A stretch of DNA of 15,650 nucleotides from a virus (lineage: Duplodnaviria; Heunggongvirae; Uroviricota; Caudoviricetes). Below, piece by piece: positions 1 to 15,650 of this stretch (the first letter of the stretch is position 1; the number at the start of each line of letters is the position of its first letter). The notes under the pieces are model-generated. The model worked only from the letters and a program-made list of their open reading frames with translations, was not told where the DNA came from and did no database searches. The position numbers and the translations under genes were made by a program. Location of the stretch: the IMG/VR virus record IMGVR_UViG_2703718817_000011; one strand, written 5' to 3'.

Positions 1-165
1 ATGGCAAAGCCGATCATCACGCTCAATGGCCTAAAAATCGTCATTATGTTGGGAATGCTGGTCATTATTCTCTGCGGTATCCGTTTTGCCGCCGAGATCA
101 TCGTGCCGTTTATTCTCGCATTATTTATTGCTGTTATATATAACTTATCCCGCATAGTGCATTGA
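1..165 (+). pseudogene. tqsA: Truncated 5' fragment of AI-2 exporter gene tqsA (ydgG), interrupted by the inserted element
   Basis: ORF at nt 1 translates [46 protein letters not shown], which matches the TqsA N-terminus from memory; it then diverges (YNLSRIVH) and stops at 163-165 instead of continuing about 340 codons. Confidence 0.55.
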
Positions 166-210
166 TTTAATTAAGCAATTTTCACTGAGAAAGTGCCAAA
201 ATTCGCAAAA

Positions 211-234
211 TGACTACACCAGTGACTACACCGT
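211..234. repeat. Tandem direct repeat, 2 x TGACTACACC on a 12-bp period, about 70 bp inside the left junction
   Basis: tgactacaccag / tgactacaccgt at 211-222 and 223-234, read directly. Confidence 0.5.
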
Positions 235-620
235 TCGGTGCACTGTATGAAACAACGTGGAACAAATAGGCACAAGAAATATAAAGGCGGGTAATTTTAA
301 GGAGGCGTTGCTGTCGATATGGGGATCCCCATAACGGGGCTACCGGATTTTTTTTCCGGTTAACCTTTAATCAGCCAGGTGGGTTTTACATACCCTTGAT
401 CACCGTAATGATGATCCAGATGTGCACCTTTTCCACCAATGGCGGAAAAGCTCCAACCGTAACGATGATCGCTATGGTTGCCTCGATGGTCTGCGTGGTC
501 ATTATGACCATTCAGCCAGTGACCTTAATCAGAATTTTTCGCTAAAAAATGACGTTGGCCACGTCATCCGGAAAGCACAAAATCACGTCGATTTTTAATG
601 AACGGTTAAACCGTCTTTTT

Positions 621-660
621 GTCACGGTGTGTCACTGGTTGTCACTCTCCGTCACGATTG
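621..660. repeat. Four helically phased decamers each beginning GTCAC
   Basis: gtcacggtgt gtcactggtt gtcactctcc gtcacgattg with an exact 10-bp period, read directly. Confidence 0.55.
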
Positions 661-769
661 AGGTGGTGCTCATTCTGCCCGACCGCGCATTTTTGCGCTA
701 TCGGGAATATAAAACAGTTACCGCCGTCAGCTACCCAGCTCAGAATTGAGCCGCCTTTTAATCAACAAG

Positions 770-1051
770 TTACCGCCGTAACCGCTCCGGCTTCTTCCAG
801 TGATACGTGATTTTCTCCTTCTCCCGATACAGTTCAACGCGGCGATTGTAGGCCAGCATTTCCAGAACGCGGATCCGTATGTCGCGCATATCCGCATCAT
901 TAAGCTGGATACCATCACGGCGCATCACCTCAGCAACAACACGCGCATAATTTTCGGCTGTCACGCTGTCCGGCTGCGTGGTCTGTTCGTCAGCCTGCTG
1001 GCTGATTCCAGAGACGCGGCGGATTAATCGCAGTATTTCGGCTTCTGTCAT
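770..1051 (-). CDS. Hypothetical protein (93 aa), last gene of the packaging operon
   Basis: ATG at 1051 preceded by a GAGGT SD; starts 14 nt after the terL stop; no recognisable family. Confidence 0.5.
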   Translation of the reverse strand: MTEAEILRLIRRVSGISQQADEQTTQPDSVTAENYARVVAEVMRRDGIQLNDADMRDIRIRVLEMLAYNRRVELYREKEKITYHWKKPERLRR

Positions 1052-1064
1052 GCTGCTGACCTCA

Positions 1065-2726
1065 TTACACCCCGCTAAATTCTTCCAGTTTCTGGCGGTG
1101 GCTGTCGCTTATATCAAAAGCAAAATCCTCATGCTCTGCCTGGAATGTACCAAACGCCATCAGCGCCGCTACGCTCGGGTCTATCTTGTTCGGTGATTTT
1201 TTCTTGTTCGGCTTGATATTGGCGTTCGCGTCACTCTGCATCACGACGTTACTCATCGACCAGGACAACACCGGATCGCCACGATGCACAATCACCCTGC
1301 GGTTAACAAAAACTTCGAACGATTTCGCCGCCGGACTGAATCTGAGGTAGGTTTGCGGGAACGGCTCCACCTCAAAACCAGCCCCCTGTAATTGCGTCCT
1401 GAGATGCGTGGCGTTCCACGTATCAAAGCCCACCAGCCTGATATTAAATTTCTCCGCATCCTGCATGATGTCATCTCTGATCCGGTCGTAATCAATGCAG
1501 TCACCTGGCGTTGTGCGTATCCAGCCCGCTTTAGCCCACTGGCGATAGACAGCGCGGTTTTTATTGGCGGGGTTCTGTAGCTGGAACTCCGGCAGATAAT
1601 GACGGGAAACCAGCATGATATTTTTACCGACCGGAAAGGCATAGCACACGCTGGAAATATCGCTGGTTGATGATAAGTCCAGCCCCGCGTAACACTCCTG
1701 CCCGTGTAAATCTTCCTCCGTGAACGTTCCGGCACACTCAGCCCATGCGCCGTTACCCATCCACGGGGTAGCCCCCTGGCACCAGATATTAAATCGCTTT
1801 GTCATCATCTCCACCCATTGCGACGGAATACCCCGCGCTTTCTGGATGGTTGAGGCCAGTTTTTCACGATCCACGGAAACATCGATGTTAGGGTTAGCCT
1901 TTATCCACATCGCCGGATCATCAACCTCGTTTTCGTCGTCCAGCTCGTAAATCAGCACAAAAATTGAATCGTTGACCTCTTCGCCGTCCAGGATCTGGCA
2001 GCAATAATCATAGTGCTGTTTACAGGTTGAAACGACGTTACTGCCCGATGTGGTAATGGCAAATAACAGCCCTTCGGGACGTGCGCCCATCCCCAGCTCA
2101 AGCGCGGAATAAACGCCGTTATCGGGGTGTAGGTGGTATTCGTCCACGATGGAAAGGCTGGGGTTTGTTCCCTCGATGGTTGCCGCTTTTGCTGCCAGCG
2201 GCTTTAACAGGCTGTTGCTTTTCGGGTGCATCACCTTGTGGGCCTGAATATTCACCCGCCTGCGTAACGGTCGGGATAAAAGGCACATCTGACGCGCATC
2301 ATCAAAAACGATCCGCGCCTGGTCACGGCTCACCGCTGCGGTGTAAATATCCTGCTGCCCGTTCTCCATAATCAGAAACCAGTTAGCCAGAATCGCGGCG
2401 GTCGTGGATTTCGCATTTTTGCGCGGCACTTCGATAAAGGCGCTCGTGTATTTGCGCCGTCCGGTGGCCTTAACCTTAAAGCCGAGGATGCACGCAAAGG
2501 CGAACTGCTGCCACGGCTCCAGCTCAATGGGTCTGCCACGCATCGGCCCTTTTACGTGCGGGCACACCCTGGAAAAGGCAATAAACCGCTCCACAACCTC
2601 ACGATCGAACGTGTAAAGGGGGCTTTCAAGGTCCGAAAAGTACCGTTTAACGGCCTGTTTCAGCCGTTTACAGGCCGGAATTTTGCCCGTTTTTACGTCT
2701 TCTGCGTACTTATTCCAGGCGGTCAA
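1065..2726 (-). CDS. terL: Terminase large subunit (HK97-type)
   Basis: 553-aa ORF with an N-terminal ATPase Walker A-like segment (VPRKNAKSTTAA) and a C-terminal nuclease-like region; apparent TTG start at 2726 with an AGAGGA SD, overlapping the terS 3' end. Confidence 0.88.
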   Translation of the reverse strand: MTAWNKYAEDVKTGKIPACKRLKQAVKRYFSDLESPLYTFDREVVERFIAFSRVCPHVKGPMRGRPIELEPWQQFAFACILGFKVKATGRRKYTSAFIEVPRKNAKSTTAAILANWFLIMENGQQDIYTAAVSRDQARIVFDDARQMCLLSRPLRRRVNIQAHKVMHPKSNSLLKPLAAKAATIEGTNPSLSIVDEYHLHPDNGVYSALELGMGARPEGLLFAITTSGSNVVSTCKQHYDYCCQILDGEEVNDSIFVLIYELDDENEVDDPAMWIKANPNIDVSVDREKLASTIQKARGIPSQWVEMMTKRFNIWCQGATPWMGNGAWAECAGTFTEEDLHGQECYAGLDLSSTSDISSVCYAFPVGKNIMLVSRHYLPEFQLQNPANKNRAVYRQWAKAGWIRTTPGDCIDYDRIRDDIMQDAEKFNIRLVGFDTWNATHLRTQLQGAGFEVEPFPQTYLRFSPAAKSFEVFVNRRVIVHRGDPVLSWSMSNVVMQSDANANIKPNKKKSPNKIDPSVAALMAFGTFQAEHEDFAFDISDSHRQKLEEFSGV

Positions 2727-3066
2727 GCTCGTCCTCTTCTTCTGTTTCCGGTGGATTTTTACGGCGGCTTATCGGGTCAAAACCGAGCAAAGAGGCCATT
2801 TTTATCATCACTCTTTCAGCGTCGGATTTTGCGCTTAATGCGGGGTTTCTGCTCTCGCCGCCCTGACTGTTAACAATGCTGAACCCGCGCGCCGCAAGGT
2901 CTGCAACGGCTTTCCGGTAAATGGAGTAGTTGACACAATACAGTTCCAGATTGCTCCAGTCGGCGGGGGTCAGGTCTCCCCGTTCCGCAAGCTGCCTAGA
3001 TTTTTCCCGCCACTGCTTCACGGCGATATCATCCAGGTAGGCGGGGGCTTTCGGTGGTCTTGCCAT
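2710..3066 (-). CDS. terS: Terminase small subunit (P27 family-like)
   Basis: 118-aa ORF directly upstream of and overlapping terL; sequence resembles P27-family small terminase subunits (recollection). Confidence 0.75.
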   Translation of the reverse strand: MARPPKAPAYLDDIAVKQWREKSRQLAERGDLTPADWSNLELYCVNYSIYRKAVADLAARGFSIVNSQGGESRNPALSAKSDAERVMIKMASLLGFDPISRRKNPPETEEEDELDRLE

Positions 3067-3188
3067 GCTTATTTTTCGCCAGATTATTTTTCAAAAAATT
3101 CCCGTGCATAAAAATTTGAGGAGGCGTTCGGTGCCCGGCGGGGTCGGGTTGGTCCTGAAAACGCCCCCCACCCCGTCATACAGCCTCA

Positions 3189-3371
3189 TCAGCGATTGCG
3201 GAAACATTCCATAACCTCGCGGTCACGGTCGGTTAATCGCTTCGCTGTGATGCGTTCTGCGCGTCCTGACGCTTTATCTTTATGCCCTGTTTCCTGTGTC
3301 TTCCATGCGTCACGCTGCCTTATAAGTCCACGGATAAGGCGGTTTTGCTCCCGCTCATTCATCAGCGTCAT
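3189..3371 (-). CDS. Hypothetical small basic protein (about 60 aa) between HNH and terS
   Basis: Internal ATG at 3371 (or 3362) of track ORF 3189..3593, overlapping the HNH stop; highly charged sequence; weak SD. Confidence 0.3.
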   Translation of the reverse strand: MTLMNEREQNRLIRGLIRQRDAWKTQETGHKDKASGRAERITAKRLTDRDREVMECFRNR

Positions 3372-3795
3372 ACATCCAGTTATTGCGGTTAGCGGCCCGT
3401 TCTTCCTCTTCACGAAATCCACCTGCGGCACGCTTGCTTTTTGTTGCCGGATCAAGCCATTTCGTTTTCTGGTTATGACACGCCTGGCACAATGGTTGAT
3501 GGTTCCATTCGGGCCAGAAGAGAACATCATCACCGCCATTAATCGGGATAATGTGATCCACCACCACGGCGGGCGTATATATCCCCTTCTCAAGGCATCG
3601 CACGCATAACGGGTTTTTACTCAGATACATGGCGCGGTATTTGTCCCACTGTCTGGAATATCCACGCGCGCGGCGGTGTCCTCGTCTGGCATCCTCTGCA
3701 CGCCATGCCGCCCGCCTGTGCTCCTCACACTTGCCGGATTTAACGCGCCTGTTACAGCCTGGTTCTGTGCATCGTCTTAATGGTTGCCACGGCAT
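3355..3795 (-). CDS. HNH endonuclease (packaging-associated)
   Basis: 146 aa with paired Cys motifs and an HNH core (CxxC ... DHIIP ... N ... H ... CxxCH); located next to terS as in HK97-like cos phages; start overlaps the upstream stop. Confidence 0.85.
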   Translation of the reverse strand: MPWQPLRRCTEPGCNRRVKSGKCEEHRRAAWRAEDARRGHRRARGYSRQWDKYRAMYLSKNPLCVRCLEKGIYTPAVVVDHIIPINGGDDVLFWPEWNHQPLCQACHNQKTKWLDPATKSKRAAGGFREEEERAANRNNWMYDADE

Positions 3796-4091
3796 CAGTA
3801 CACCCCCACATCACGGTAAGCCGTCCAGAGTGCGCCTATCGTCATGGGTACGCGTGTTTTTGCGTTATCCGCGACAATCTGGCGATTTTCATACAGGTGA
3901 GCGATAAACATCATGCAGCCAATCTTTATGGCTGGCGTGAACTCCAGCCCGTCATCAAAGCGCCTGCCTATGTGTATCTGGCACGCCTCAAGCGATGCGG
4001 CAATGTATCCGCTGATTAACTGGTCTTCATCGTCGCCATCGATGCGGCAATGGAGTTTCACTTCTTCCAGGGTGATAAGTTCTTCTGTCAT
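3795..4091 (-). CDS. Head-tail connector protein (gp6-like DNA packaging protein)
   Basis: 98-aa ORF; N-terminal ITLEEVKLHCRIDGDDEDQLI pattern typical of gp6-like connectors (recollection); ATGA overlap with the upstream gene. Confidence 0.65.
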   Translation of the reverse strand: MTEELITLEEVKLHCRIDGDDEDQLISGYIAASLEACQIHIGRRFDDGLEFTPAIKIGCMMFIAHLYENRQIVADNAKTRVPMTIGALWTAYRDVGVY

Positions 4092-4426
4092 TTTTCCGCG
4101 CCCTCACGACAAAGAATTTCAAGGCGTGTCCTGGCGGCATCCGGCAGCGGCTGCCCGATGATATTCAGTACACGCCCCGCCAGCGGCCCCGTACTGACCT
4201 TTATCCGACTGGTGGCGTTGATGTCCTTCCGGTACCGTATCCAGATCCTTACGGTACCAATCGCCAGCTCTGCGCCCGATGAAATGGCCTCCTTGCTGCT
4301 GATCATGTTCACGCTTGCCCAGAGTGTGTGACCGTCCTCCCACGTTTCGAGTATTTCGCCCGTCATGGCTCTGGTCTGTTTCAGGGTCTGAATCGTTATC
4401 CTGTCACGCAGTCGCCCTATGTTCAT
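4088..4426 (-). CDS. Head closure / head-tail joining protein
   Basis: Start taken at the internal ATG 4426, which forms an ATGA overlap with the portal stop; begins MNIGRLRDRITIQ, a hallmark of the phage head-tail joining family. Confidence 0.65.
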   Translation of the reverse strand: MNIGRLRDRITIQTLKQTRAMTGEILETWEDGHTLWASVNMISSKEAISSGAELAIGTVRIWIRYRKDINATSRIKVSTGPLAGRVLNIIGQPLPDAARTRLEILCREGAEK

Positions 4427-5634
4427 TCCGGTTTTTCTCCCTCGCTGATTTTTACTTCCTGTTTCCATGCCTGGCTGAACTCATCACCACCATCACGCGG
4501 TGACAGTCCTTCACGTTCGCGGGCTTCGTTCGGACACATAACGCCGGATTTGATGCCGCGCTCATAGGTGGCAAAGCGTTCGCCAGGTGTGGCCCGTAAC
4601 AGGTCCGCGCTGTCAAACTCCACCTGATACCGGATACCAGGTACAGGCGAGGCCACCAGCAGGGCGTTTTTTATCTGCTGCTCAAAGTTCGCCAGCCACG
4701 GGCGCATCGTCATGGTGAGAAATGCGCGGCTTGCCTCGCTGAAATTGCTGTAGGTGCTGTTGCTGTATTCCTGCAAAAAAATCGGCGAGACGTTGAACAT
4801 TCGGGCGATGTCTTCAATGGTGAAGCGACGGGAGGCCAGCCATTCAGCATCCTGATTACTCATGCCCAGCTGCTGATAGCTCATACCCCCTTCAAGGATG
4901 GGCGTTTTTCCGGCGTTTCTGGCCCCTTTGTAGCGTTCCAGTGCGGCTAATGCCTGTTTGCCCTTCACGCCGTCCAGCCATTCGCCTGACGTGATAACCC
5001 CTGCCGCCATCATGCCATCACGCATCACGCTCGCGCCGTGGCGTTGTTGGGCCAGCCCAAGCCCCAGCGATTCGCGGCAGATGGTTACAGGTGAGCGCCC
5101 CATAAAGCCGTCATCCGTGGAGTAACGAAGGTGAAGTACTTCCCACGGTAAATAGTTGCGGGTGTTTCCGGTGTAGGCGTCAGTGATGCAGTAGCGCCAG
5201 TTGTGTTCGCCTGTCTGCTCCACGTTCACCGACTGCGGCGGGTAAGGATGTAAAGCCGCCGGAAAACCATCACGCCCCCACTGAATCACCGCATAAGCAT
5301 TACCGTTTAACAGGCAGTGGCGGATCATCATTCGCTTAAACTGGTAGGGGGTTTGCCATGCGTTCGGGCGCTCGTTGAGGATGTGATCGACCGGATGAGA
5401 ATCAAGCCACTCGCGGGCCTCCTTCCCCTTCTCATTGCGTACCAGGTACAGGTAACACGGCATGGTAGCCACCGCCTCAGAGATGACCGTGACGGCGTTC
5501 ATGACGGCGGGCAGTGATTCCGCTGTCCCCGATGATACGTACTCACCCGCCCCCGTGTTCGATGTGCCAGCCAGCGCCATAAATTCATCAAGCGTCATGC
5601 TGCGCTGCTCTTTTTTTCTTCTGAAAGGCCACAT
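4423..5634 (-). CDS. Portal protein (HK97 family)
   Basis: 403-aa ORF with portal-family features; GGGGGTG SD upstream of ATG 5634; starts immediately after the protease stop. Confidence 0.88.
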   Translation of the reverse strand: MWPFRRKKEQRSMTLDEFMALAGTSNTGAGEYVSSGTAESLPAVMNAVTVISEAVATMPCYLYLVRNEKGKEAREWLDSHPVDHILNERPNAWQTPYQFKRMMIRHCLLNGNAYAVIQWGRDGFPAALHPYPPQSVNVEQTGEHNWRYCITDAYTGNTRNYLPWEVLHLRYSTDDGFMGRSPVTICRESLGLGLAQQRHGASVMRDGMMAAGVITSGEWLDGVKGKQALAALERYKGARNAGKTPILEGGMSYQQLGMSNQDAEWLASRRFTIEDIARMFNVSPIFLQEYSNSTYSNFSEASRAFLTMTMRPWLANFEQQIKNALLVASPVPGIRYQVEFDSADLLRATPGERFATYERGIKSGVMCPNEAREREGLSPRDGGDEFSQAWKQEVKISEGEKPE

Positions 5635-5635
5635 A

Positions 5636-6208
5636 TCACACCCCCGCTAAATCCACCCACCAGCGGCGATTATCCGCACGCGGCATTTTTTCGGGGTGCT
5701 GCTCATACAGGGAACGGCGGGCCAGCTCCACGCCGGAATCAGGGTAAGCCGGAACGGATGTAACGGTAATTTCGTACAGTTCCGCCACCAGCACGGTGCG
5801 CACGCATGGATCTGTTGTGGTATCCCATACATCCTTACGGGAACGAAAGCCAAAGCTCATGCCGGATATATCACCACGTTTAACCAGTTCGATAACGTCG
5901 CGCCCTGTGCTGGTATCCGGTGGGGTCAGTTCAAAGCGTAACCCTGTTTCGTCCTCTTCCAGTTTCAGCGTGCCGGAACGGGTACGCCCCAGTAACATGC
6001 TGTGGTCATGCTCATACAGGCCGCGAACGTCATTACCCGCTGCAAGCCATTCAGTAAACGCTCCCCGCTGGAATTTTTCGTAAAACTCACCCCATAACAG
6101 TTCTGAAAGCTTATCCCAGCGAACAACGTAGCCCGTCAGCGTACCGGCTCCGCTGGTGGTGATTTCCGATGACCGGATTTCCATACTCTTCATAATTTTT
6201 TCACCCAT
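5636..6208 (-). CDS. Prohead maturation protease (HK97 family, S78)
   Basis: 190 aa with YEHDHSMLLGRT and ISGMSFGF motifs typical of HK97 prohead proteases; alternative starts at 6193 or 6184. Confidence 0.82.
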   Translation of the reverse strand: MGEKIMKSMEIRSSEITTSGAGTLTGYVVRWDKLSELLWGEFYEKFQRGAFTEWLAAGNDVRGLYEHDHSMLLGRTRSGTLKLEEDETGLRFELTPPDTSTGRDVIELVKRGDISGMSFGFRSRKDVWDTTTDPCVRTVLVAELYEITVTSVPAYPDSGVELARRSLYEQHPEKMPRADNRRWWVDLAGV

Positions 6209-6237
6209 AAAACACTAAAGGGGCTTTTAAGCCCCTT
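6204..6237 (-). terminator. Intrinsic terminator-like hairpin after the capsid gene (minus strand)
   Basis: AAGGGGC / GCCCCTT stem at 6218-6237 followed on the minus strand by a U-rich run (UAGUGUUUUAUG). Confidence 0.4.
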
Positions 6238-6247
6238 CTGTATGCTG

Positions 6248-7405
6248 TTAATCGTCGTCCTGTGGCAGTTCCAGAATCTTGATCGCGTTCGAATCCACCA
6301 CGCCACCGCCTAAATATTTCTGCGTGAAAATTTTGATGAAGCCCGGCTCTGTGAGGTTGTCCGGTCTGGTGCGAACACCTGTTTCGTGATCAACAATGTA
6401 GTAACCGCGTTTGAAGTCACCCAGGGCAATAACGTTATCAGGCATAAACTCCAGATATTCGACCGGAAGGCCCAGCAACGTATCAGGATCACCCGCCTGT
6501 AAACGGTCGCGCCAGATGTAATCACCGTTCGCGTTCTTCACCTTCTGAAGTTTTGCCGCCGTCGTGGAGTTAACCACCCAGACCGCGTTTTTGCGGTATT
6601 TTTTACGTAATGCAAATTTCAGGTCGATCAACGGGTCCGCAGATGTCCACGCCAGAGATTCGGAAGGTTTAATTACCTGCAACGTACCAAAATCACGCTC
6701 TTTGTCGTTCTTCTCTGCACGGGGTACGGATAAAAAACCTTTTGCTTTTTTGTCACCGTCGCCCACAACCAGATCGCTTTCTTCGGTTTCCGTGAAGGTG
6801 TCGCCAATCTCACCCGTCAGCCATGAAAGGATGTCCACATCGGAAAAATCCACGATTTCCTGTGTGGTGCGCGGGTACGCATAGACCGGATACAGCTTAA
6901 TGCTCACCTCGTTAATCTGCGGGGTGCTGGTCTGTTCGCGTGTCTTACCCTCTTCACCGTGGTTAACGGTCGCACCGCCAGCGGAAACAAGCTGCTTAAA
7001 CTCGTTGCTGCTGATTTTCTTCACGGTACAGATGCGGCGCATGGTGGACTCATCCGCCAGCATTCGCATGATTTCGGTGTTCAGCTCGGGGATAACGGTA
7101 TAACCACCATCAGCGGGAACGCCTGTACTTAATGCGCGGGTTTCACCCGTCAGAATGTAGTTTCGTAGTTCTGCGGGGTCAGTGGTCTGACTGCTTTTAC
7201 CTGGCTTGCTGCGCTCTTCGTCTGCAATGGCTTCAAGGCGGGAAATGTCTTTATCGAGGGATTCAGCTTTAGCGCGTAATTCGTCAAATTTTGCGCCCTC
7301 AGCATCGTTAAGACTGCGGTTTTCTTTTTCCGCGTTCTCCAGCATGTCACGCATCTGATTTTTAATGGCGGTTTTCTGCTGGCGTAATTCGATTATTCTC
7401 TGCAT
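6248..7405 (-). CDS. Major capsid protein (HK97 fold) with N-terminal coiled-coil delta/scaffold domain
   Basis: ATG at 7405 (the track ORF extends to a TTG at 7450); N-terminal coiled coil about 70 aa long followed by a capsid-family body (GGYTVIPELNTEI...). Confidence 0.88.
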   Translation of the reverse strand: MQRIIELRQQKTAIKNQMRDMLENAEKENRSLNDAEGAKFDELRAKAESLDKDISRLEAIADEERSKPGKSSQTTDPAELRNYILTGETRALSTGVPADGGYTVIPELNTEIMRMLADESTMRRICTVKKISSNEFKQLVSAGGATVNHGEEGKTREQTSTPQINEVSIKLYPVYAYPRTTQEIVDFSDVDILSWLTGEIGDTFTETEESDLVVGDGDKKAKGFLSVPRAEKNDKERDFGTLQVIKPSESLAWTSADPLIDLKFALRKKYRKNAVWVVNSTTAAKLQKVKNANGDYIWRDRLQAGDPDTLLGLPVEYLEFMPDNVIALGDFKRGYYIVDHETGVRTRPDNLTEPGFIKIFTQKYLGGGVVDSNAIKILELPQDDD

Positions 7406-7443
7406 AAAAAAAAGTCCTGGGGTTAAGTAAGGAACTCCAGGAC
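7406..7443 (-). promoter_or_regulatory. Leader hairpin plus U8 tract abutting the capsid start codon (attenuator or SD-sequestering structure)
   Basis: Minus strand reads GUCCUGGAG-loop-CCCCAGGAC then UUUUUUUU then AUG; the only SD-like AGGA lies inside the 3' arm of the stem. Confidence 0.45.
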
Positions 7444-7620
7444 GCGGCAAACACTCAACCGTTTTTCATAAGGAAATCAGCAATCGCACCGATCGTTTTC
7501 CCGCCTGGTAATGAATATTGGCGGGCACATTAACAGGCGGGAAAGTGGCCCCAGCGTCCTGGCACCACGGGCGAGAATAATCATGATTCAGTTCGGGTAA
7601 AATATGCCGATCCGCTCAGT

Positions 7621-7692: not shown

Positions 7693-7965
7693 TTAGCTGT
7701 CTGTGTAATTACGCCATATTTCATCGCTTACACCATCCATACCCATTTCAGCATAAGTGCGATCGACTGCCTTTCTCAGGTCTCCGAAGTTATCCGGCGG
7801 CTCCGGTGGCCTCTGTGCCTTCCTGGAACATTCCAGCCGTCGCATCGTAACCTGATGCCGTTCCTTGTCTGTCTCCACCAGTTGCATGACTTCACCCCAT
7901 CGCGCCGCCGCCCTCCGGTAAAAGCCTTTTGCCTCGAGTTCCTCCGCTATGCGGTCATGTGCCAT
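7693..7965 (-). CDS. PerC-family transcriptional regulator homologue
   Basis: Start at ATG 7965 with a GAGGGGG SD; contains the YRRAAARW motif characteristic of PerC/Pch proteins (recollection). Confidence 0.65.
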   Translation of the reverse strand: MAHDRIAEELEAKGFYRRAAARWGEVMQLVETDKERHQVTMRRLECSRKAQRPPEPPDNFGDLRKAVDRTYAEMGMDGVSDEIWRNYTDS

Positions 7966-7975
7966 CGTCACCCCC

Positions 7976-8386
7976 TCAGAACGGAATATCATCACCGTAA
8001 GGGTCATCGCCTCCCGCTGGTGGCTGATTACCCTGTGTGCCTGTGGCTTTGCGTCTGTTCCCGCCAGGACGTGCCGCGCGGGCACTGATTACGCTGTCCG
8101 CAATAACCTGATACCCCTGCCGTGTTTCCCCGTTCTGTCCGGTCCACTGGCTTACCTGCATCGTGCCGGATACGCTGGCAACATCGCCTTTTTGATGTTT
8201 AGCCAGGAAATCGGCCTGTTTGCCAAATGCGATAACCGATAACCATAACGTCGCCTGTCCGTCATGTGCCTGGCTGCATGGCAACGATACCGCCATACGC
8301 GCCAGAGTCATCGGTGTGCCCTTGCTGCTCTGTTTTACCAGCGGGTCGTCCACCAGCCGCCCGTAAGCTGCAATTTGTGCTGTCAT
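7976..8386 (-). CDS. ssb: Single-stranded DNA-binding protein
   Basis: 136 aa with an OB-fold-like N-terminal region, a Gly/Pro-rich linker and the C-terminal acidic tail DDIPF; GAGGTGG SD. Confidence 0.85.
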   Translation of the reverse strand: MTAQIAAYGRLVDDPLVKQSSKGTPMTLARMAVSLPCSQAHDGQATLWLSVIAFGKQADFLAKHQKGDVASVSGTMQVSQWTGQNGETRQGYQVIADSVISARAARPGGNRRKATGTQGNQPPAGGDDPYGDDIPF

Positions 8387-8395
8387 ATTGCCACC

Positions 8396-8701
8396 TCAGT
8401 GAAGCGATCCGGCGTTGTTCTTTTTCATCTCTTCCATCATTTTTTCAGTGAGCATTACGCACTGAAAACCCATGCTTTTGATGTCTACGGGTTTCATGCC
8501 TTTGTCTGTGGATATCACAGGCAGAATATCCTGATACACATCGCGGTCAGGGTAACTAAGCACACAAAGCGCCCATGATGCCACGGGTGAGGATCCTTCG
8601 TCTGTTTCAACCCACCAGCCTGGTGTAGCTGCGCTTATTTGCAGAATCGTGATCCGTCCGTTGTGCTTGTAAAATTTTTCACCAAATTTTGGTTCGCTCA
8701 T
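8396..8701 (-). CDS. Hypothetical protein (101 aa)
   Basis: ORF with an ATGA overlap to the upstream gene; 10-nt gap to ssb; no recognisable family. Confidence 0.5.
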   Translation of the reverse strand: MSEPKFGEKFYKHNGRITILQISAATPGWWVETDEGSSPVASWALCVLSYPDRDVYQDILPVISTDKGMKPVDIKSMGFQCVMLTEKMMEEMKKNNAGSLH

Positions 8702-8949
8702 GATTCCACCTCTCCGGTTTTAACGTTGATTGTTGTTACCTGTTCCGCTTCGGCAATCTCCCGTTCTGTCAGCGTGGCAAAGTTTGCCGCCGCTGTGGTC
8801 ATGAATGCGCTTATCAGTTCGGGATGCTCCTTCGCGTATCCTTCCCCCGCGTGGCGGTCTATCGTTCTGATTGCCACCTTTAAAGCGTGCTCTGTCATGT
8901 CTAACGCTTTATATTTTGGCTGTGTTCTGTCTCTGCGTTTTTGTGTCAT
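8698..8949 (-). CDS. Hypothetical protein (83 aa)
   Basis: Start taken at the internal ATG 8949 (GGTGGGGAG SD); the upstream part of track ORF 8698..9144 overlaps the iteron region and is probably non-coding. Confidence 0.4.
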   Translation of the reverse strand: MTQKRRDRTQPKYKALDMTEHALKVAIRTIDRHAGEGYAKEHPELISAFMTTAAANFATLTEREIAEAEQVTTINVKTGEVES

Positions 8950-8950
8950 C

Positions 8951-9155
8951 TCCCCACCTATACCCACTTTTACTCCCCACTTTTCACAATTCCCCATCTC
9001 GTTAAAGGCGTGGGATTTGTAATTTTTATCATGCTGTTTCATAAGGATTTTTTTGCTCCCCACTTTTTGGGATGTATACAGGTCAAAAAGTGGGGGATTG
9101 TGTTTAAATTTTGTTAAATTCCCCATACCCACCACTTTTGCCACCCACTTTTTAC
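8951..9155. repeat. Putative replication origin: CCCCACTTTT-type iterons flanking an AT-rich segment
   Basis: At least six copies of CCACTTTT in both orientations (about 8965, 8977, 9060, 9084 inverted, 9133, 9146) around an AT-rich stretch at 9011-9056, immediately 3' of the replication gene. Confidence 0.5.
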
Positions 9156-10561
9156 AGTGGCCCTACATCATCGCCGTCAACATAGATAACGCCGTCTTTT
9201 TCCAGCTTGCCCAGCCAGCGCCGGAAGTGCTTTATTTCGTACCCCAGTTTTTTCATGTCATCACGTAACAGCGGGATCGTGCACTTGTCGCCGTTCTGTG
9301 TGCGTGAACGGATACACCCCCATAGCGCGGTATGGTTTTCCGTCTTGTTGCCTGCCTCTTCGATGCGCTCCAGTTCAACGGGAGGGCGCGGCTTATCCAC
9401 CACCACCAGCGACGTGATTAACTCCCCGTCAGCGTCGGTAAAAAGCTCCACCACCCGCAAATCATAGGCAGCCTCTTTGAGTTCCTCCGCGTCCTTCATT
9501 TTGGTGCATGAGATAACCAGCGCTTCGCTTCCTGCGTCCTCCCTGCGTATCCGGTATTCAGCATCCAGTGATGCACGAAATGCACTGGAACCGCGCGCGC
9601 CTTTCGTCTCATCCTTGCCGGAATGGTGAACCACCAGCACCGTGGCCCCTGTGCGTCGTTTCAGTTCGTCACACCCACGGATAAACGCCCCCATGTCGCG
9701 GGAGTCATTTTCATCATTGCCGCCAAAGCAGCGCGCCAGCGTGTCCAGAATAATCATGCGAACAGGTTTACCCGTTTCCCTCTCCACCTGACTGGCAGCA
9801 ATAACCAGTTCATCAACATCAAGCGGGACAGCCGGAAAGATGGGACGGTTTACCAGATACAGATTTTTCACCTGCTCACCGTGCACAACCTCCCAGGCTT
9901 TTACACGACGCGGAACGCCGATACCGCCTTCACCAACCACATAGAGAACAGCGCCATGCGCCACCCTGCGGCCTCCCCACTGGCGGCCCGTGGAAACGTG
10001 ACACGCCCACGATCCGGCAAGGAATGATTTATAGGAACCGCTCGCCCCGTATATGCTGCAAAGCGACGATGCCGGAATAATCCCCTTTACCACGTAATCA
10101 AGTTGTGTGTCGTATCCGGTAGATCCAACGCTCATCGGTAGCGTGGTTTTTCGCTGGGGGATTTTTTTCATGACCAGGCTTTCCCCGCGTTCCCATGCCT
10201 CCCTAAGCCGTGGAAGCTGGTCGCTCCATTCCTCCAGCAATTCGAAATTTTCAGAAAGTAGCCGCGCCTCCTGGACTCCGGCGATCGCCAGTTTCGTGGC
10301 GATGGTTAACAGCTGCGGCTCTTCAATATTTCCGGCGCGTATCACCGTCGCCCTGTATCGCCCATCATCAACAATCTGGAGGTTATCCAGTTCGCTTAAC
10401 TGATAACGCCCCAGATAAACGGGAGGGACTGGATCGCCTGCTTTTTTGGCCTGTGCAATGATGTAATGCTCTGCGAATGAGTGAGCATCAATACCCGCAA
10501 AAATAATCGCATCGGTGTATTTGTCTTTCGGTAATAGTTTTACGTTCGGTGCCAGTTTCAT
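9152..10561 (-). CDS. Replication initiator/helicase-type ATPase (AAA_25/RepA-like), candidate PICI Pri-Rep
   Basis: 469 aa with Walker A GASGSYKS, Walker B-like MIILDTL and an HHSGK motif typical of AAA_25 RecA-like replication proteins; N-terminal domain about 150 aa of unknown type. Confidence 0.7.
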   Translation of the reverse strand: MKLAPNVKLLPKDKYTDAIIFAGIDAHSFAEHYIIAQAKKAGDPVPPVYLGRYQLSELDNLQIVDDGRYRATVIRAGNIEEPQLLTIATKLAIAGVQEARLLSENFELLEEWSDQLPRLREAWERGESLVMKKIPQRKTTLPMSVGSTGYDTQLDYVVKGIIPASSLCSIYGASGSYKSFLAGSWACHVSTGRQWGGRRVAHGAVLYVVGEGGIGVPRRVKAWEVVHGEQVKNLYLVNRPIFPAVPLDVDELVIAASQVERETGKPVRMIILDTLARCFGGNDENDSRDMGAFIRGCDELKRRTGATVLVVHHSGKDETKGARGSSAFRASLDAEYRIRREDAGSEALVISCTKMKDAEELKEAAYDLRVVELFTDADGELITSLVVVDKPRPPVELERIEEAGNKTENHTALWGCIRSRTQNGDKCTIPLLRDDMKKLGYEIKHFRRWLGKLEKDGVIYVDGDDVGPL

Positions 10562-11555: not shown

Positions 11556-11757
11556 AAAGCATCCCCTGAATATTCGTGTTAATCATTCCGGCACGTTTTG
11601 TGATTTCCTGTAATGATTCCCTTGTGGCGACAATTGCTTCATCTGGTAAGTGGTAATTACACACCACGCGACCTTTATCCACATTGACCAGTAGCTGCCC
11701 TGTGAATTTCTCACGAAACTGAATGCGGTTAAGGTCAGTAAGTGACAGATTAATCAT
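11545..11757 (-). CDS. Hypothetical protein (70 aa)
   Basis: ATG 11757 preceded by a strong AGGAGGTG SD and overlapping the upstream stop. Confidence 0.5.
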   Translation of the reverse strand: MINLSLTDLNRIQFREKFTGQLLVNVDKGRVVCNYHLPDEAIVATRESLQEITKRAGMINTNIQGMLYAQ

Positions 11758-12307
11758 GGCGCACCTCCTGACGAATACGGGCGGCAAATACAGCAACACA
11801 ACCGGACGGGCAACGGTTACGCGCTTCGCGTTCCGTCCAGGCGGTTACGTGGATGATTTGATGGTCTGACGCGCCAAAGGCAATAAAGCGCCAGATAAAG
11901 GCTGTTTGAGAATGTACGAGGGCAGGGGTAGTAGCCATGTTGGCAGCCTCCTCAGTGTGGTTAAGATAACCGCCACGCAAAAGGCTAATTTCGCTGGTGG
12001 CGGACTGTACAGGGTTAGCCTTACCGGACACTGAAGAAACCGGCGCGGATTGCTCCGCCCCCGTACAGCCCACCATTGATAAGGTGTGACTATGCGGCAC
12101 AAAAAAACACGCGGGACGCGTGCTGTGCGCTTCAGTTGTTTTCAGGAGGCTAATCCCGACACCCGTTTTATGAGGTGCGCGGGAATCATAGCTATTTTCG
12201 ACACTGGCGATCAACTGGTTTTTTTCTCCGATATTCAGGGCCAGAAAACGCCACACAAAGGCAGTTTGTGTGTGTACAAGGTGTGGTATATGATTTACAG
12301 CAACCAT
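11750..12307 (-). CDS. Icd-like (P4 host cell division inhibitor-like) protein with tandem duplicated domain and internal start
   Basis: ATG 12307 with an AGGAG SD; two copies of an LVH(T/S)QTAF(V/I)WRF segment; second in-frame ATG at 11938 has its own GAGGAGG SD; Icd-like call from recollection of P4-like island proteins. Confidence 0.5.
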   Translation of the reverse strand: MVAVNHIPHLVHTQTAFVWRFLALNIGEKNQLIASVENSYDSRAPHKTGVGISLLKTTEAHSTRPACFFVPHSHTLSMVGCTGAEQSAPVSSVSGKANPVQSATSEISLLRGGYLNHTEEAANMATTPALVHSQTAFIWRFIAFGASDHQIIHVTAWTEREARNRCPSGCVAVFAARIRQEVRHD

Positions 12308-12398
12308 AACGGCTCCTAGTTTACGTTGTTGGTTAGAAGCCCTGCGAGTGGTAACGACACTTGCGGGGCTTTGTCTTTTCATCGATTACCTTGATAAA

Positions 12399-12487
12399 GG
12401 TGTCAGCCACTATATTAGTAACGGGTGTCAGCCACGTCAATAGTGTTTTTCCGTTTTCTTGTGTGTATACTGTCAGCCACCTAATAA
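12399..12487. promoter_or_regulatory. Divergent promoter/operator region with three direct repeats of GGTGTCAGCCAC
   Basis: Repeats at 12399-12410, 12424-12435 and 12470-12480; minus-strand TTGACG-17nt-TAATAT (12435-12440 and 12412-12417) with a repeat in the spacer; plus-strand TATACT (12466-12471) or TTGTGT-17nt-TAATAA. Confidence 0.45.
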
Positions 12488-12501
12488 CGAGGAAATCAGA
12501 T

Positions 12502-12681
12502 ATGGCAACAAAAGCAGTTAATGCAAAATCCAAAAAGCTTGAGGCTCGAGTACCACACGCAATAGCTGATGCTGTAGAAAATTTAAAGGAAGATGGCGAA
12601 AGTACAGGGCAATTTATCGTTTCGGCACTTGAAGGCGAGATCAAACGCCGCCAGCGCCGCAAGGCCAAAGAATCAGAATAA
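12502..12681 (+). CDS. Ribbon-helix-helix (CopG/Arc-like) DNA-binding protein, 59 aa
   Basis: ATG 12502 with a GGAA SD; predicted beta-strand/helix/helix layout (KLEARVPHAIADAVENLKEDGESTGQFIVSALEGEIKRR); divergent from the replication operon. Confidence 0.55.
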   Translation: MATKAVNAKSKKLEARVPHAIADAVENLKEDGESTGQFIVSALEGEIKRRQRRKAKESE

Positions 12682-12738
12682 TCACTATCAGCGCCGTGGT
12701 GTGAGGTACTACGGCGCATTGCTTTACAGGGCAGTATC

Positions 12739-12966
12739 ATGACCAACAACACACTATCACCAATACAAGACACGCAAACGCAAGATGATGAATTCATCCG
12801 GCAAAGGCAGTCAGAAGCCTGCGCCAGACTTGAGGAAGAACTAACCAGAACAAAAATACCACCACCAGCGCCGCGCTTAGTGCCACCAGAAAAATTTGCC
12901 CTTGAAGATTTTGTCGATAAATACCCACGGCGGCTTAAATCCGGCAAAAACCGACCGCCAGGATGA
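12739..12966 (+). CDS. Small protein of unknown function (75 aa), partner of the upstream RHH gene
   Basis: ATG 12739 follows the conserved 44-nt hairpin element; paralogous to 13423..13626. Confidence 0.45.
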   Translation: MTNNTLSPIQDTQTQDDEFIRQRQSEACARLEEELTRTKIPPPAPRLVPPEKFALEDFVDKYPRRLKSGKNRPPG

Positions 12967-13084
12967 GTGCACAAAACCGAACTATGAAACGGATTATTCC
13001 GTTTCCGGGGCGTTTGTGTGTGTATAAAGAGTAAGCTATGCTCTTTTATAGCCATAATCGTTCCTCAATTAATGGTTTGGTTAG

Positions 13085-13128
13085 ACGCCCCGTATGTGTT
13101 CCCATCACTGCGGGGCGTTGTTTTTTGT
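13085..13128 (+). terminator. Intrinsic terminator after the first RHH module
   Basis: 8-bp GC-rich stem ACGCCCCG / CGGGGCGT followed by TGTTTTTTG. Confidence 0.5.
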
Positions 13129-13185
13129 GCTAGTTGTGTGTAATGTGTATATACACATAAACACATTATATGGGGTGTAATTGAC

Positions 13186-13365
13186 GTGTCAACACACAAA
13201 AATGAAAGGCGTGGTAATCCTCCTTTCCAGTTCCGTTTAGATCCTGACTTACGGGAAAAGATGGAAAAAGCACAACAACAAGACGGTGATGACTCTTTAG
13301 CTGCTTGGATAAAACGAATAATCCGAAAAGAATTACAGCAACGCGGTATTGAACCCAAAGAATAA
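13186..13365 (+). CDS. Arc-like ribbon-helix-helix protein, about 59 aa (start uncertain, GTG proposed)
   Basis: Not in the ORF track (below 60 aa with a non-ATG start); hand translation gives VSTHKNERRGNPPFQFRLDPDLREKMEKAQQQDGDDSLAAWIKRIIRKELQQRGIEPKE, resembling P22 Arc; GGGGTG SD-like 8 nt upstream. Confidence 0.5.
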   Translation: MSTHKNERRGNPPFQFRLDPDLREKMEKAQQQDGDDSLAAWIKRIIRKELQQRGIEPKE

Positions 13366-13422
13366 AAAACATCAGCGCCGTGGCGTGAGGAACTCCGGCG
13401 CATTGCTTTACAGGTACACACA

Positions 13423-13626
13423 ATGACCAATAAAGAATCAACCAATACACCATCGCAAAAAACGAACAGAGAGCACGAAAATATGGCGCTCGAGCATGAA
13501 TCAGAAAGATTCGCTCCATGCGCTTTTGTCCTTGATGAGTTTCTAAAAAAATATTCACGTTCTGAACGGATGAAAATGGCAGCACAATACGGCCCCAACA
13601 AGCAAGGTAATTGCCCACCAGCCTGA
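13423..13626 (+). CDS. Small protein of unknown function (67 aa), paralogue of 12739..12966
   Basis: ATG 13423 follows the second copy of the 44-nt element; both proteins start MTN and share a C-terminal F(A/V)L(E/D)(D/E)F..KY.R motif. Confidence 0.45.
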   Translation: MTNKESTNTPSQKTNREHENMALEHESERFAPCAFVLDEFLKKYSRSERMKMAAQYGPNKQGNCPPA

Positions 13627-13699
13627 TAGCGGCTATCATTCCCGTGCTTATGTTTGGGATCACATACACATAAGGCGCAGCAGGTTAATTGTTCAGAAA

Positions 13700-13728
13700 G
13701 GCGGCTCCATATCGGGGCCGCTTTTTTT
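13700..13728 (+). terminator. Intrinsic terminator after the second RHH module
   Basis: GCGGC / GCCGC stem followed by seven T. Confidence 0.5.
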
Positions 13729-13869
13729 ATGCCTGAAAAACCCCAATTTTGTTGTTTTTCAGTTTCACCAGGGCGAACGAATCCCCGCCCACGTTCGGGC
13801 GCATATTCAATCTTCATAGTTATATCTCTGTATTAGTGGATGTGTGGCGACTGTGTGCCGCCAGTCTTT

Positions 13870-14058
13870 TTAGTGAACTGCCTTGCAGCTATCCTTCCAG
13901 GCCAAAACCTCAGATAAAGACCAGCCAACAGAACGCCCACCAAGTTTACGACGTGATGGGAATTGTCCGGCCTTTTCCAGGCGGTAGCGGCATGAGCGGC
14001 TAAGGCCTGTTAGCTTTTCGCATTCTTTTTCACGTATAAACCGATCAGTGCTTAACAC
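13870..14058 (-). CDS. alpA: AlpA-family phage regulatory protein (excisionase/transcriptional regulator-like)
   Basis: 62 aa, apparent GTG start with an AAGGGGG SD; winged-helix excisionase-like sequence (LTGLSRSCRYRLEKAGQFP ... GWSLSEVLAW); downstream of and co-directional with int. Confidence 0.78.
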   Translation of the reverse strand: MLSTDRFIREKECEKLTGLSRSCRYRLEKAGQFPSRRKLGGRSVGWSLSEVLAWKDSCKAVH

Positions 14059-14432: not shown

Positions 14433-15650
14433 TTATTTTATTCTGGTTACTGGTAGCGTGGTTACGTTTTCATGTGTTCCCGCCAGTATCTCCAACCGCT
14501 CCACCCACATATCAAGCGCATTGCGTTTCGCATCAATATAGCGGGAATGGTTGTACACGCGTTGCATTCCTGGCATCTGGTGGCCTGTAAGCTGCTCCAC
14601 GACGTGAGGATCAACGCCTAAATCGTTCAGCATGGTTGTAAAGGTGCGCCGGATGTCATGCAATGACCATTGAGGGTGTTTTAGCCTCCTGTGCGCTAAT
14701 CTGCCGTACTGCGATACGCTAGCCTCCTGTTTCACTTCCCCCAGTAATAAGCCCGTGTGCCTGTTCTGGTCCACCAGCCGCGTGACGAACGGCAGGATCG
14801 CTTCCGGTATGGGCCGGAATATTGCAACCTTCGTTTTGCTGTGCTCCTTCGGAACGGTCCATAGCATTTCGGTAAAATCCCACTCGCTGATCTCCGATAA
14901 CCTCAGTTCTACCGTCCTGGCTCCGAAGACAATCAGGAGGCGGATTAACGCGACGTAGTAAGGAGAAAATATTTTTTTATCCAGCGCCTGCAATAACTCG
15001 CCCAGTTCTTTGGTGCTTAAGACACGTTCGCTTATATCCGGTTTTTTCCCAACGTCCGCCACGTTCAGATCATCGAGAACGTTGCTGATTGCAAAGCGCC
15101 GCCTCCGGCAGAACTTAAGCGCCTGCTTGCATGTCTGTAGCACGAATCCGGCAGTAACAGGTGTTCGCTTTGCCACCTGGTCAAAACAGGCCAGCCAGTG
15201 CCGTAGCTCGCATTTATCCAGCGGCATAGCGCCAATGTACTGTATTACGTGATTATTAAGTCGCCTTTTCAGGGCGATATAATCCACGCGGTTTTCCTTT
15301 ACGTACGACTCAAGCCAGTAGGTGAGCGCATCGCCAACCGTTACCGGCTTTAACGCTTCCTGTACGGCGTAATTCATCTCATGGCGTGGATTTTTCCCCT
15401 CCGCCAGCCATGCGCGACACTGGGCGGCTTTTTCCCTGGCTGCTTTCAGGCTCAGATCAGGATAATTTCCCAGCTTAATACGTTCCGGTCGTGTCTCTCT
15501 TCCCGTTCCTGCCCTGTAAGTGAAATACCAGGTTAATTTCCCTGATGTTAAATATTTCACGCTCAGATTTCCGCCATCGCTATAAAACGTGTTTTTCTCC
15601 GCTGGCTTACCATGAAGTTTCCTTAGCAAGGTATCGCTCAGTTTGTTCAT
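14433..15650 (-). CDS. int: Tyrosine-type site-specific integrase (phage/P4-like family)
   Basis: 405-aa ORF whose start codon is the last three bases of the window; C-terminal catalytic signature HDIRRT ... H ... Y and an N-terminal arm-binding-like domain. Confidence 0.9.
   Translation of the reverse strand: MNKLSDTLLRKLHGKPAEKNTFYSDGGNLSVKYLTSGKLTWYFTYRAGTGRETRPERIKLGNYPDLSLKAAREKAAQCRAWLAEGKNPRHEMNYAVQEALKPVTVGDALTYWLESYVKENRVDYIALKRRLNNHVIQYIGAMPLDKCELRHWLACFDQVAKRTPVTAGFVLQTCKQALKFCRRRRFAISNVLDDLNVADVGKKPDISERVLSTKELGELLQALDKKIFSPYYVALIRLLIVFGARTVELRLSEISEWDFTEMLWTVPKEHSKTKVAIFRPIPEAILPFVTRLVDQNRHTGLLLGEVKQEASVSQYGRLAHRRLKHPQWSLHDIRRTFTTMLNDLGVDPHVVEQLTGHQMPGMQRVYNHSRYIDAKRNALDMWVERLEILAGTHENVTTLPVTRIK

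Follow-up and report, generated by a model that had tools for sequence, protein, structure and literature searches.

Capsid-forming PICIs (cf-PICIs) are a described family, of which EcCIEDL933 is the prototype (Alqurainy et al.; bioRxiv 10.1101/2022.09.08.507074). Members are induced by helper phages and are packaged in small capsids of their own, to which tails of the helper are joined. The DNA analyzed here, the whole 15,650-nucleotide stretch of IMG/VR virus record IMGVR_UViG_2703718817_000011 (hereafter the window), resembles EcCIEDL933 in its genes and their order (int, alpA, a replication module, PerC, the major capsid protein, protease, portal, connectors, HNH, TerS, and TerL) and in its size (~15–16 kb, without tail or lysis genes). 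The two differ in their target. The EcCIEDL933-type element of O157:H7 lies between phoQ and roxA (phoQ|roxA) and has the core AAATATGTCC, whereas the core of the window is TGCTGTTAT and lies inside tqsA; the integrases are ~90% identical. The O157-type element at phoQ|roxA, 94% identical over 82% of the window, is presumably EcCIEDL933 itself, for which the paper gives no coordinates.

The target gene has also been described. tqsA is among the core genes disrupted by prophage-like integration and is a prophage hotspot (Bobay et al. 2013, PMC3603311), and it is listed as a new candidate for "regulated gene integrity" (RGI) by Mageeney et al. (2020, PMC7192596), whose TIGER survey supplement contains Eco282.16.tqsA, Eco33.11.tqsA, and Eco557.15.tqsA as islands that disrupt UPF0118, the AI-2E family. 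In the parts of these two papers that concern tqsA, the islands are, like the window, 11–16 kb long, integrase-bearing, and found in E. coli, and they leave AI-2E/UPF0118 disrupted and unrestored. They almost certainly share the site and the integrase clade of the window, a match made by description rather than by sequence. Unlike the present analysis, those same parts do not describe the elements as cf-PICIs and give no core, arm sites, or secondary site. Since earlier publications cover the tqsA site, its disruption, and the element family, there is little new in the finding as such.

By architecture, rather than by P4 sequence, the integrase resembles those of the P4/CP4-57 type, combining PF13356 (formerly DUF4102) with PF00589 and having an AlpA-type regulator beside int; the next tier of homologues, at ~55% identity, includes proteins named "Prophage CP4-57 integrase". 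This type usually targets tRNA or tmRNA genes at their 3′ ends, a tendency rather than a strict criterion, whereas the integrase of the window targets a coding sequence, codons 43–46 of tqsA. The Int proteins of Lambda and HK022 are closely related arm-binding tyrosine integrases that use different cores within a conserved att architecture. Compared with them, the tqsA- and phoQ-type integrases form a pair that is 90% identical and is carried on satellites otherwise 96–99% identical.

Attachment sites and the fate of tqsA

The window opens with the genuine 5′ end of tqsA. In a megablast of window 1–600 against 5,426 complete E. coli genomes, positions 1–137 match intact alleles at 99–100% identity, the annotation over the match reads "tqsA: AI-2 transporter TqsA" in nearly every genome, and base 137 is the constant end of the match across thousands of element-free genomes. 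Identity, synteny, and translation place codons 1–45 and the first two bases of codon 46 in this host segment (1–137, plus strand). The frame starts with ATG and follows TqsA residues 1–46 (...LFIAVI), then continues into element-derived sequence (138–165, plus strand) as YNLSRIVH and a stop, giving a 54-aa ORF. The first base foreign to tqsA is 138, the premature TGA occupies 163–165, and codon 46 is silently changed from ATT to ATA. The sequence-only reading had seen the frame leave TqsA at about codon 46, which is where identity stops (inside that codon, at base 137), and the span it pointed to, 130–170, takes in the core, the junction, and the premature stop.

The far junction, attR, lies ~189 bp past base 15650 and hence outside the view of the window. 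We took it from near-identical elements rather than from the window's own genome, namely those in RM10042, E686, ESDR8, one draft assembly, and four Logan contigs whose integrase is exactly that of the window, and attR is the same in every copy read. RM10042 (E. coli O43; locus L001) carries an element 99.9% identical to that of the window, with an integrase identical in 405/405 residues. There, a tqsA fragment follows mdtI-mdtJ-ydgV, and ~15.5 kb further on a tqsA fragment annotated as "missing N-terminus" is followed by pntB-pntA; the intact locus of SE11 (L002), mdtJI-ydgV-tqsA-pntBA, has the same neighbors. The remaining 907 bp of tqsA (129–1035 by blastn) pick up exactly at the core on the far side of the element.

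Alignment of the window with uninterrupted tqsA from SE11 and with sequence past the junction from RM10042, the check that the sequence-only reading had proposed for finding the core, shows that attL, attR, and attB share one 9-bp block, TGCTGTTAT (window 129–137; L001 35661–35669; L002 2629–2637), which also belongs to the inferred attP. The left junction reads tqsA...TTATTTAT-TGCTGTTAT-ATATAACTTATCC...element, the right junction reads element...CACTAATTGATAAAA-TGCTGTTAT-TCTTAAC...tqsA in RM10042, and the empty site reads ...TTATTTAT-TGCTGTTAT-TCTTAAC...; intact alleles match an attR query from the T of the TGCTGTTAT block onward. With attB at codons 43–46 and no tRNA or tmRNA gene anywhere in the window, integration took place in the tqsA coding sequence and not at a tRNA, as had been read from the letters alone. 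A Thr/Pro49 difference beside the core was considered as element-derived and rejected, as the same CCG occurs in intact alleles. In the source genome of the window, we predict that the sequence past 15650 contains a P arm with two copies of AGTGACTACACC, then ...TTGATAAAA-TGCTGTTAT-TCTTAAC..., tqsA codons 44–344, and pntB.

The P′ arm of attL (window 138–300) is delimited by alignment to sister elements, by repeats, and by ~80 bp of similarity to the P arm beside int. Its first part, 138–155, is specific to tqsA-type elements, and from ~156 the sequence is common to sisters at the phoQ site. Tandem copies of TGACTACACC lie at 211–220 and 223–232. The P arm is the 197 bp between the integrase start and the core, and in RM10042 it contains two tandem AGTGACTACACC repeats, the same pair as in the P′ arm at 211–232; the ~80 bp around the repeats are similar between the arms in direct orientation. 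These tandem TGACTACACC repeats on both arms are likely candidates for arm-type integrase binding sites. PGAP calls a 60-aa "hypothetical protein" that spans the whole P arm from integrase start to core (L001 35473–35655, plus strand) and recurs in ESDR8 (L009), strain 2313 (L027), and locus L005. This ORF, which overlaps the arm-site repeats, is unlikely to be a genuine gene.

In the proposed mechanism, the tyrosine integrase would recombine a reconstructed attP, ...CACTAATTGATAAAA-TGCTGTTAT-ATATAACTTATCC..., with ...TTATTTAT-TGCTGTTAT-TCTTAAC... in tqsA. Strand exchange would occur inside the 9-bp identity block, with an overlap that is probably the 7-bp TGCTGTT (129–135), directly 3′ of a conserved element-side core site, GATAAAA; the exact cleavage positions suggested here are read from natural variants only. 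A 27-mer of the reconstructed tqsA-type attP, GATAAAATGCTGTTATATATAACTTAT, has no match in IMG/VR and JGI metagenome contigs, a phoQ-type attP used as a control in IMG/VR has none either, and four IMG/VR contigs contain the integrated attR only. A 16.4-kb Logan contig with a 97% identical integrase was considered as a circular element and rejected, being an ordinary chromosomal contig that ends within the element.

The gene is not rebuilt at either junction. At attL the tqsA frame stops after eight foreign codons, and at attR it reads ...N T N stop stop N A V I L N P..., with TGA and TAA in frame just 5′ of the core. What is left is a 54-aa stub (TqsA 1–46 and eight foreign residues) and a 3′ fragment behind two in-frame stops, and RefSeq (PGAP) flags both halves as pseudogene or incomplete. 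The sequence-only reading expected inactivation unless the element rebuilt the 3′ portion. There is indeed no rebuilding, and inactivation very probably follows, but since the window holds the 5′ part and the last 301 codons come after 15650, the part for the far junction to rebuild would be the 5′ one, which is absent there. The longest leftover tqsA ORF, which gene finders call, starts at Met54 and has 291 aa; it could in principle be expressed. A promoter and terminator scan of window 1–1100 gave counts at or below shuffle expectation and no sign of read-out into either tqsA fragment, and the 3′ fragment is without a promoter of its own.

Structure points to loss of function. The AI-2E_transport domain covers TqsA residues 14–328, and the break falls within it. 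In the cryo-EM study of TqsA, which treats YdiK alongside it, H1 comprises Thr7–Phe29 and H2 Ala31–Trp57, with H1 forming the main cytoplasmic contact of the pentamer (PMC9475539); the Met54 ORF is without H1 and most of H2. With H1 lost and H2 cut inside the domain, loss of TqsA function is very likely, and on this structural ground the AI-2 exporter would very likely be inactive while the element is resident. At the SE11 locus, tqsA is monocistronic, convergent with pntB, and divergent from ydgV, so that no polar effect on the neighbors is expected. In 4/4 loci checked the 3′ fragment is open over all of its 301 codons, and both halves are otherwise undamaged, so that precise excision would restore the gene if the element is, as we infer, competent for excision. 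A different lesion occurs in CFSAN004176 (NZ_CP014583.1; 7972–8368 of locus L006), where an internal deletion of tqsA from ~nt 120 to ~nt 757 has removed the attachment site and no element is present. Either an unrelated deletion or imprecise loss of the element, with a scar left behind, could account for it.

A 207-bp probe centered on the empty site finds the attB region unbroken in 5,170 of 5,423 genomes (95% empty) and broken in 253, and a 246-bp probe for the attR junction (P arm and tqsA) is matched whole in 247 of 5,426 complete E. coli genomes. With the same attR in 247 of the 253 broken sites, tqsA is a dedicated, repeatedly used primary site and no accident. The attachment sites of cf-PICIs are not used by prophages, and at tqsA at least 247 of the 253 broken sites carry the satellite P arm. 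The elements at tqsA vary in their replication module: the cf-PICI of RM10042 has a RepA helicase and that of E686 a primase-type protein, and the PICI of a draft genome, which is non-capsid, combines a D5-type primase with a 93% identical integrase and an identical attR. These three kinds of element are independent insertions. In the assembly collection, the exact window integrase occurs in 949 blocks.

Gene content of the element

From core to core, the element measures 15,532 bp in RM10042 and a projected ~15.7 kb in the version of the window, att-bounded lengths within the 10–18 kb of cf-PICIs. On Pfam, PHROGs, and the RefSeq annotation of the RM10042 element, the packaging and capsid module occupies 770–7450 on the minus strand. 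It begins with a small conserved ORF (phrog_1561 by PHROGs) and contains, by Pfam, TerL (1065–2726), TerS (2710–3066), HNH (3355–3795), a portal (4423–5634), an HK97-type protease (5636–6208), and the major capsid protein (6248–7450), together with head-tail connector and head closure genes named in the RefSeq annotation of the RM10042 element. A PerC-family regulator, SSB, and a RepA-type (AAA_25) replicative helicase lie at 7693–10561 (minus strand; Pfam and annotation), after which the minus-strand order is DUF4222, small ORFs, an Icd-like protein, an ash-family gene, AlpA, and the integrase. The AlpA-family regulator or excisionase-like gene (13870–14058, minus strand) matches PF05930 with E = 5e-18.

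The tyrosine integrase (14433–15650, minus strand) is recognized by Pfam, alignment, motifs, and annotation. It has Arm-DNA-bind_3 and Phage_integrase domains (PF13356, E = 9e-19; PF00589, E = 2e-16) and is intact, with motif residues R245, H331, R334, H357, and Y366 (R..HxxR..H..Y). The window ends at an internal ATG of this gene. The RefSeq start is a GTG four codons further out (VSRAM...; L001 35473–35485), where phoQ-type integrases have an ATG, and the gene therefore probably starts beyond the window. No tail or lysis gene is present among the ~30 annotated CDS of near-identical elements, and no further large ORF has a family match. The element combines an integrase, AlpA, and its own replication module with a complete head and packaging set, and on this gene content its architecture is that of a capsid-forming PICI with EcCIEDL933 as prototype. 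We conclude that window 129–165 is, very probably, the attL of an EcCIEDL933-like capsid-forming PICI of ~15.7 kb that has inserted site-specifically into tqsA codons 43–46 and split the gene without rebuilding it, with tqsA as the regular primary site of this integrase type.

Several smaller features of the element were also observed. Two Rfam families score above the gathering threshold, C4 antisense RNA (75 bits; 11993–12080, minus strand) and the Hfq-binding RNA isrK (62 bits; 12102–12178, minus strand). They lie inside or upstream of the ash-family ORF (11750–12382), near the Icd-like gene, an arrangement reminiscent of the P1/P7 immI-type region. Relative to RM10042, the closest complete genome, the window has 362 extra bases (11862–12223) that comprise the C4 and isrK RNAs and the 5′ part of ash, deleted in RM10042, and it lacks a 183-bp unit that in RM10042 is bounded by a 40-bp direct repeat (window 685–724). 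Long minus-strand ORFs at 12333–13055 (240 aa) and 13065–13817 (250 aa) were rejected as genes; they have no Pfam or PHROG match and are probably antisense artefacts. Opposite them are four small plus-strand ORFs, all called by PGAP, and 3/4 have PHROG matches (phrog_949, the Arc-like repressor family, and phrog_21027). The region of the 12333–13817 ORFs resembles a diverged tandem duplication of ~700 bp.

Sister elements and a secondary site

Many whole-window matches start only at base 156–161 and end at 15647, and those elements sit between phoQ and roxA. The shared block of this phoQ type, AAATATGTCC, begins within the phoQ stop codon, so that phoQ is left intact, and in its attP, GATAAAA-TATGTCC-TTTTATC, perfect inverted repeats flank a 7-bp center. 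Elements occupy phoQ|roxA in 600 genomes, compared with 247 for tqsA. The element of JNE120442 at phoQ|roxA is collinear with the window at 96% identity and reaches ~99% in most packaging and capsid genes, while identity is 63–93% over the 5′ half of the integrase (14751–15650) and 65–86% over the first 500 bases; further variable patches lie at ~8750–9250 and 12250–13000. As 14751–15650 and 1–500 are adjacent in the circular form, this pattern indicates that an integrase–attP module has been exchanged between near-identical elements. The integrases of the two types are ~90% identical, and in seven sequences 25 positions separate them, 17 in residues 1–57 (the arm-binding domain), six in 129–200, and two in the catalytic domain.

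More distant relatives use other sites. An 83% identical integrase adjoins a LysR gene, a 75% identical one adjoins cspD/macB, and a 67% identical one adjoins rcnR, and all three keep ...CACTAA-T-A-AAA as element-side sequence directly before their own cores. A tRNA site is found in 0/5 relatives examined (integrases 67–93% identical), so the notable feature is the position inside a gene and not the missing tRNA. The remark in the sequence-only reading that P4-like and PICI integrases more often use tRNA genes or other conserved 3′ ends describes a tendency of the family, but within this clade targets such as phoQ|roxA and sites next to cspD, a LysR gene, and rcnR are normal. Among phage records there is no integrase more than 50% identical; the best phage-borne integrase reaches 50%, and one of the two such records is only 16.5 kb long and may itself be a satellite. 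A survey of genome contigs across genera with an exact-peptide pattern returned one locus, a phoQ-type element of Shigella flexneri.

One strain combines the two sites. In ESDR8 (NZ_CM169472.1; 1–21018 of locus L009), phoP-phoQ is followed by a cf-PICI and then by the tqsA 3′ fragment and pntB, with a phoQ-type attL (ATATGTCC-TTTTATC) on the left and a tqsA-type attR on the right; this copy of the cf-PICI carries IS21-family and IS110-family insertions. The best reading of this hybrid is homologous recombination between two oppositely oriented resident cf-PICIs, which would invert the phoQ–tqsA segment.

The exact window integrase also occurs away from tqsA, beside type III secretion genes in one metagenome scaffold, and an integrase identical in 391/409 residues has the same location in strain 2313 (NZ_AP027159.1; 3264–18026 of locus L027). 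The insertion lies in eprI, the needle-protein gene of ETT2. The empty site reads AAATTGAT-TGCTGATAT-CCATAAT (locus L028, ~600–625) and has one mismatch to the core, at position 6, where intact ETT2 alleles appear, from this single mismatch in the matches and in L028, to carry A. Strain 2313 has the element's T at attL and the host's A at attR, and the metagenome scaffold has T at attR. Such different inheritance of the mismatched base in two insertions is expected of an overlap heteroduplex and, together with the geometry of the phoQ type, these two natural events would place the overlap at TGCTGTT (129–135). The ETT2 junction is present in only 1 of 5,426 complete genomes. The P-arm probe matches three places in strain 2313, whose primary sites may already have been occupied.

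Alternative readings and consequences

E. coli has several AI-2E family paralogues, and the sequence-only reading had named an unrelated paralogue as what would undo it: the N-terminal 46 codons would then stem from such a gene, or from a duplicated fragment, and the true junction would lie elsewhere. The 137/137 identity to tqsA itself, the right flanking genes on both sides, and the tqsA remainder that resumes exactly at the core beyond the element rule out the unrelated paralogue, and a break point that recurs in 253 genomes is neither chance resemblance nor a paralogue; we give this explanation practically no weight. It is scarcely conceivable, too, that the element repairs the gene, with a junction supplying the missing part of a functional TqsA. 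Repair is the usual rule stated for integrative elements in coding sequences (PMC7192596), and an ATG does stand immediately 5′ of the core at attR, but that ATG, being out of frame, was discarded as a new tqsA start, the tqsA frame there is preceded by TGA and TAA, the foreign codons at attL have no similarity to TqsA 47–344, and PGAP marks both parts as incomplete. It is very improbable that tqsA is no dedicated attachment site and was hit off target by accident, or that the junction is an artefact of rearrangement. Off-target use by this type of integrase does occur, at TGCTGATAT in the needle gene of ETT2, in a single complete genome and a metagenome scaffold, and recombination between resident copies can make hybrid junctions, as in ESDR8. 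The tqsA junction, however, occurs in 247 genomes against one for the secondary site, tqsA and the attP core are identical over 9 bp, and the integrase and att segment form a distinct module with 25 type-specific residues. Nor is the attL of the window a hybrid, as its P′ side and the integrase are both of the tqsA type. The preferred reading remains site-specific insertion at a regular primary site, so that the observation made from the sequence is confirmed and its interpretation supported, with two corrections, to the end of the gene that would need rebuilding and to the targets normal for the clade.

Site-specific insertion leaves room for a further proposal, that the disruption is regulated gene integrity or active lysogeny, in which AI-2 export is off upon integration and on again after helper-phage-triggered excision, to the benefit of host or element. 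The insertion disrupts a domain and leaves it unrestored, at the same position and in multiple independent events within one integrase clade that involve several element types, all features of RGI, and tqsA is among the RGI candidates named in the survey of Mageeney et al. (PMC7192596). Neither half has acquired further mutations at any locus checked, so that excision would restore the gene, and with tqsA monocistronic and convergent with pntB one function alone would be affected. Nothing beyond recurrence and intact halves was found in its favor, however, and recent insertions predict intact halves equally well. The site is empty in 95% of genomes, and the use of an intergenic site by the sister integrase, which does no harm there, is more frequent (in 600 genomes, against 247 for tqsA), so that gene disruption is not needed for the success of the element. 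We consider a regulated switch of this kind unlikely. A broader version is also doubtful, in which the tqsA- and phoQ-type satellites would be a natural specificity-switch pair, a swapped module of ~1.5–2 kb (the N-terminal half of the integrase and attP, with 25 residues) would have retargeted a cf-PICI from a harmless intergenic site into tqsA, and the insertion would reversibly switch AI-2 export when triggered by helper phage, with effects on quorum sensing and biofilm behavior.

The 9-bp core, the natural secondary site, and the pair of 90% identical integrases offer a compact system for the retargeting of tyrosine integrases. For E. coli, ~4.6% of complete genomes, many STEC lineages among them, carry a cf-PICI in tqsA and would be without a functional AI-2 exporter. 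Work on AI-2 signaling or biofilm in carrier strains should take the occupation of tqsA into account.
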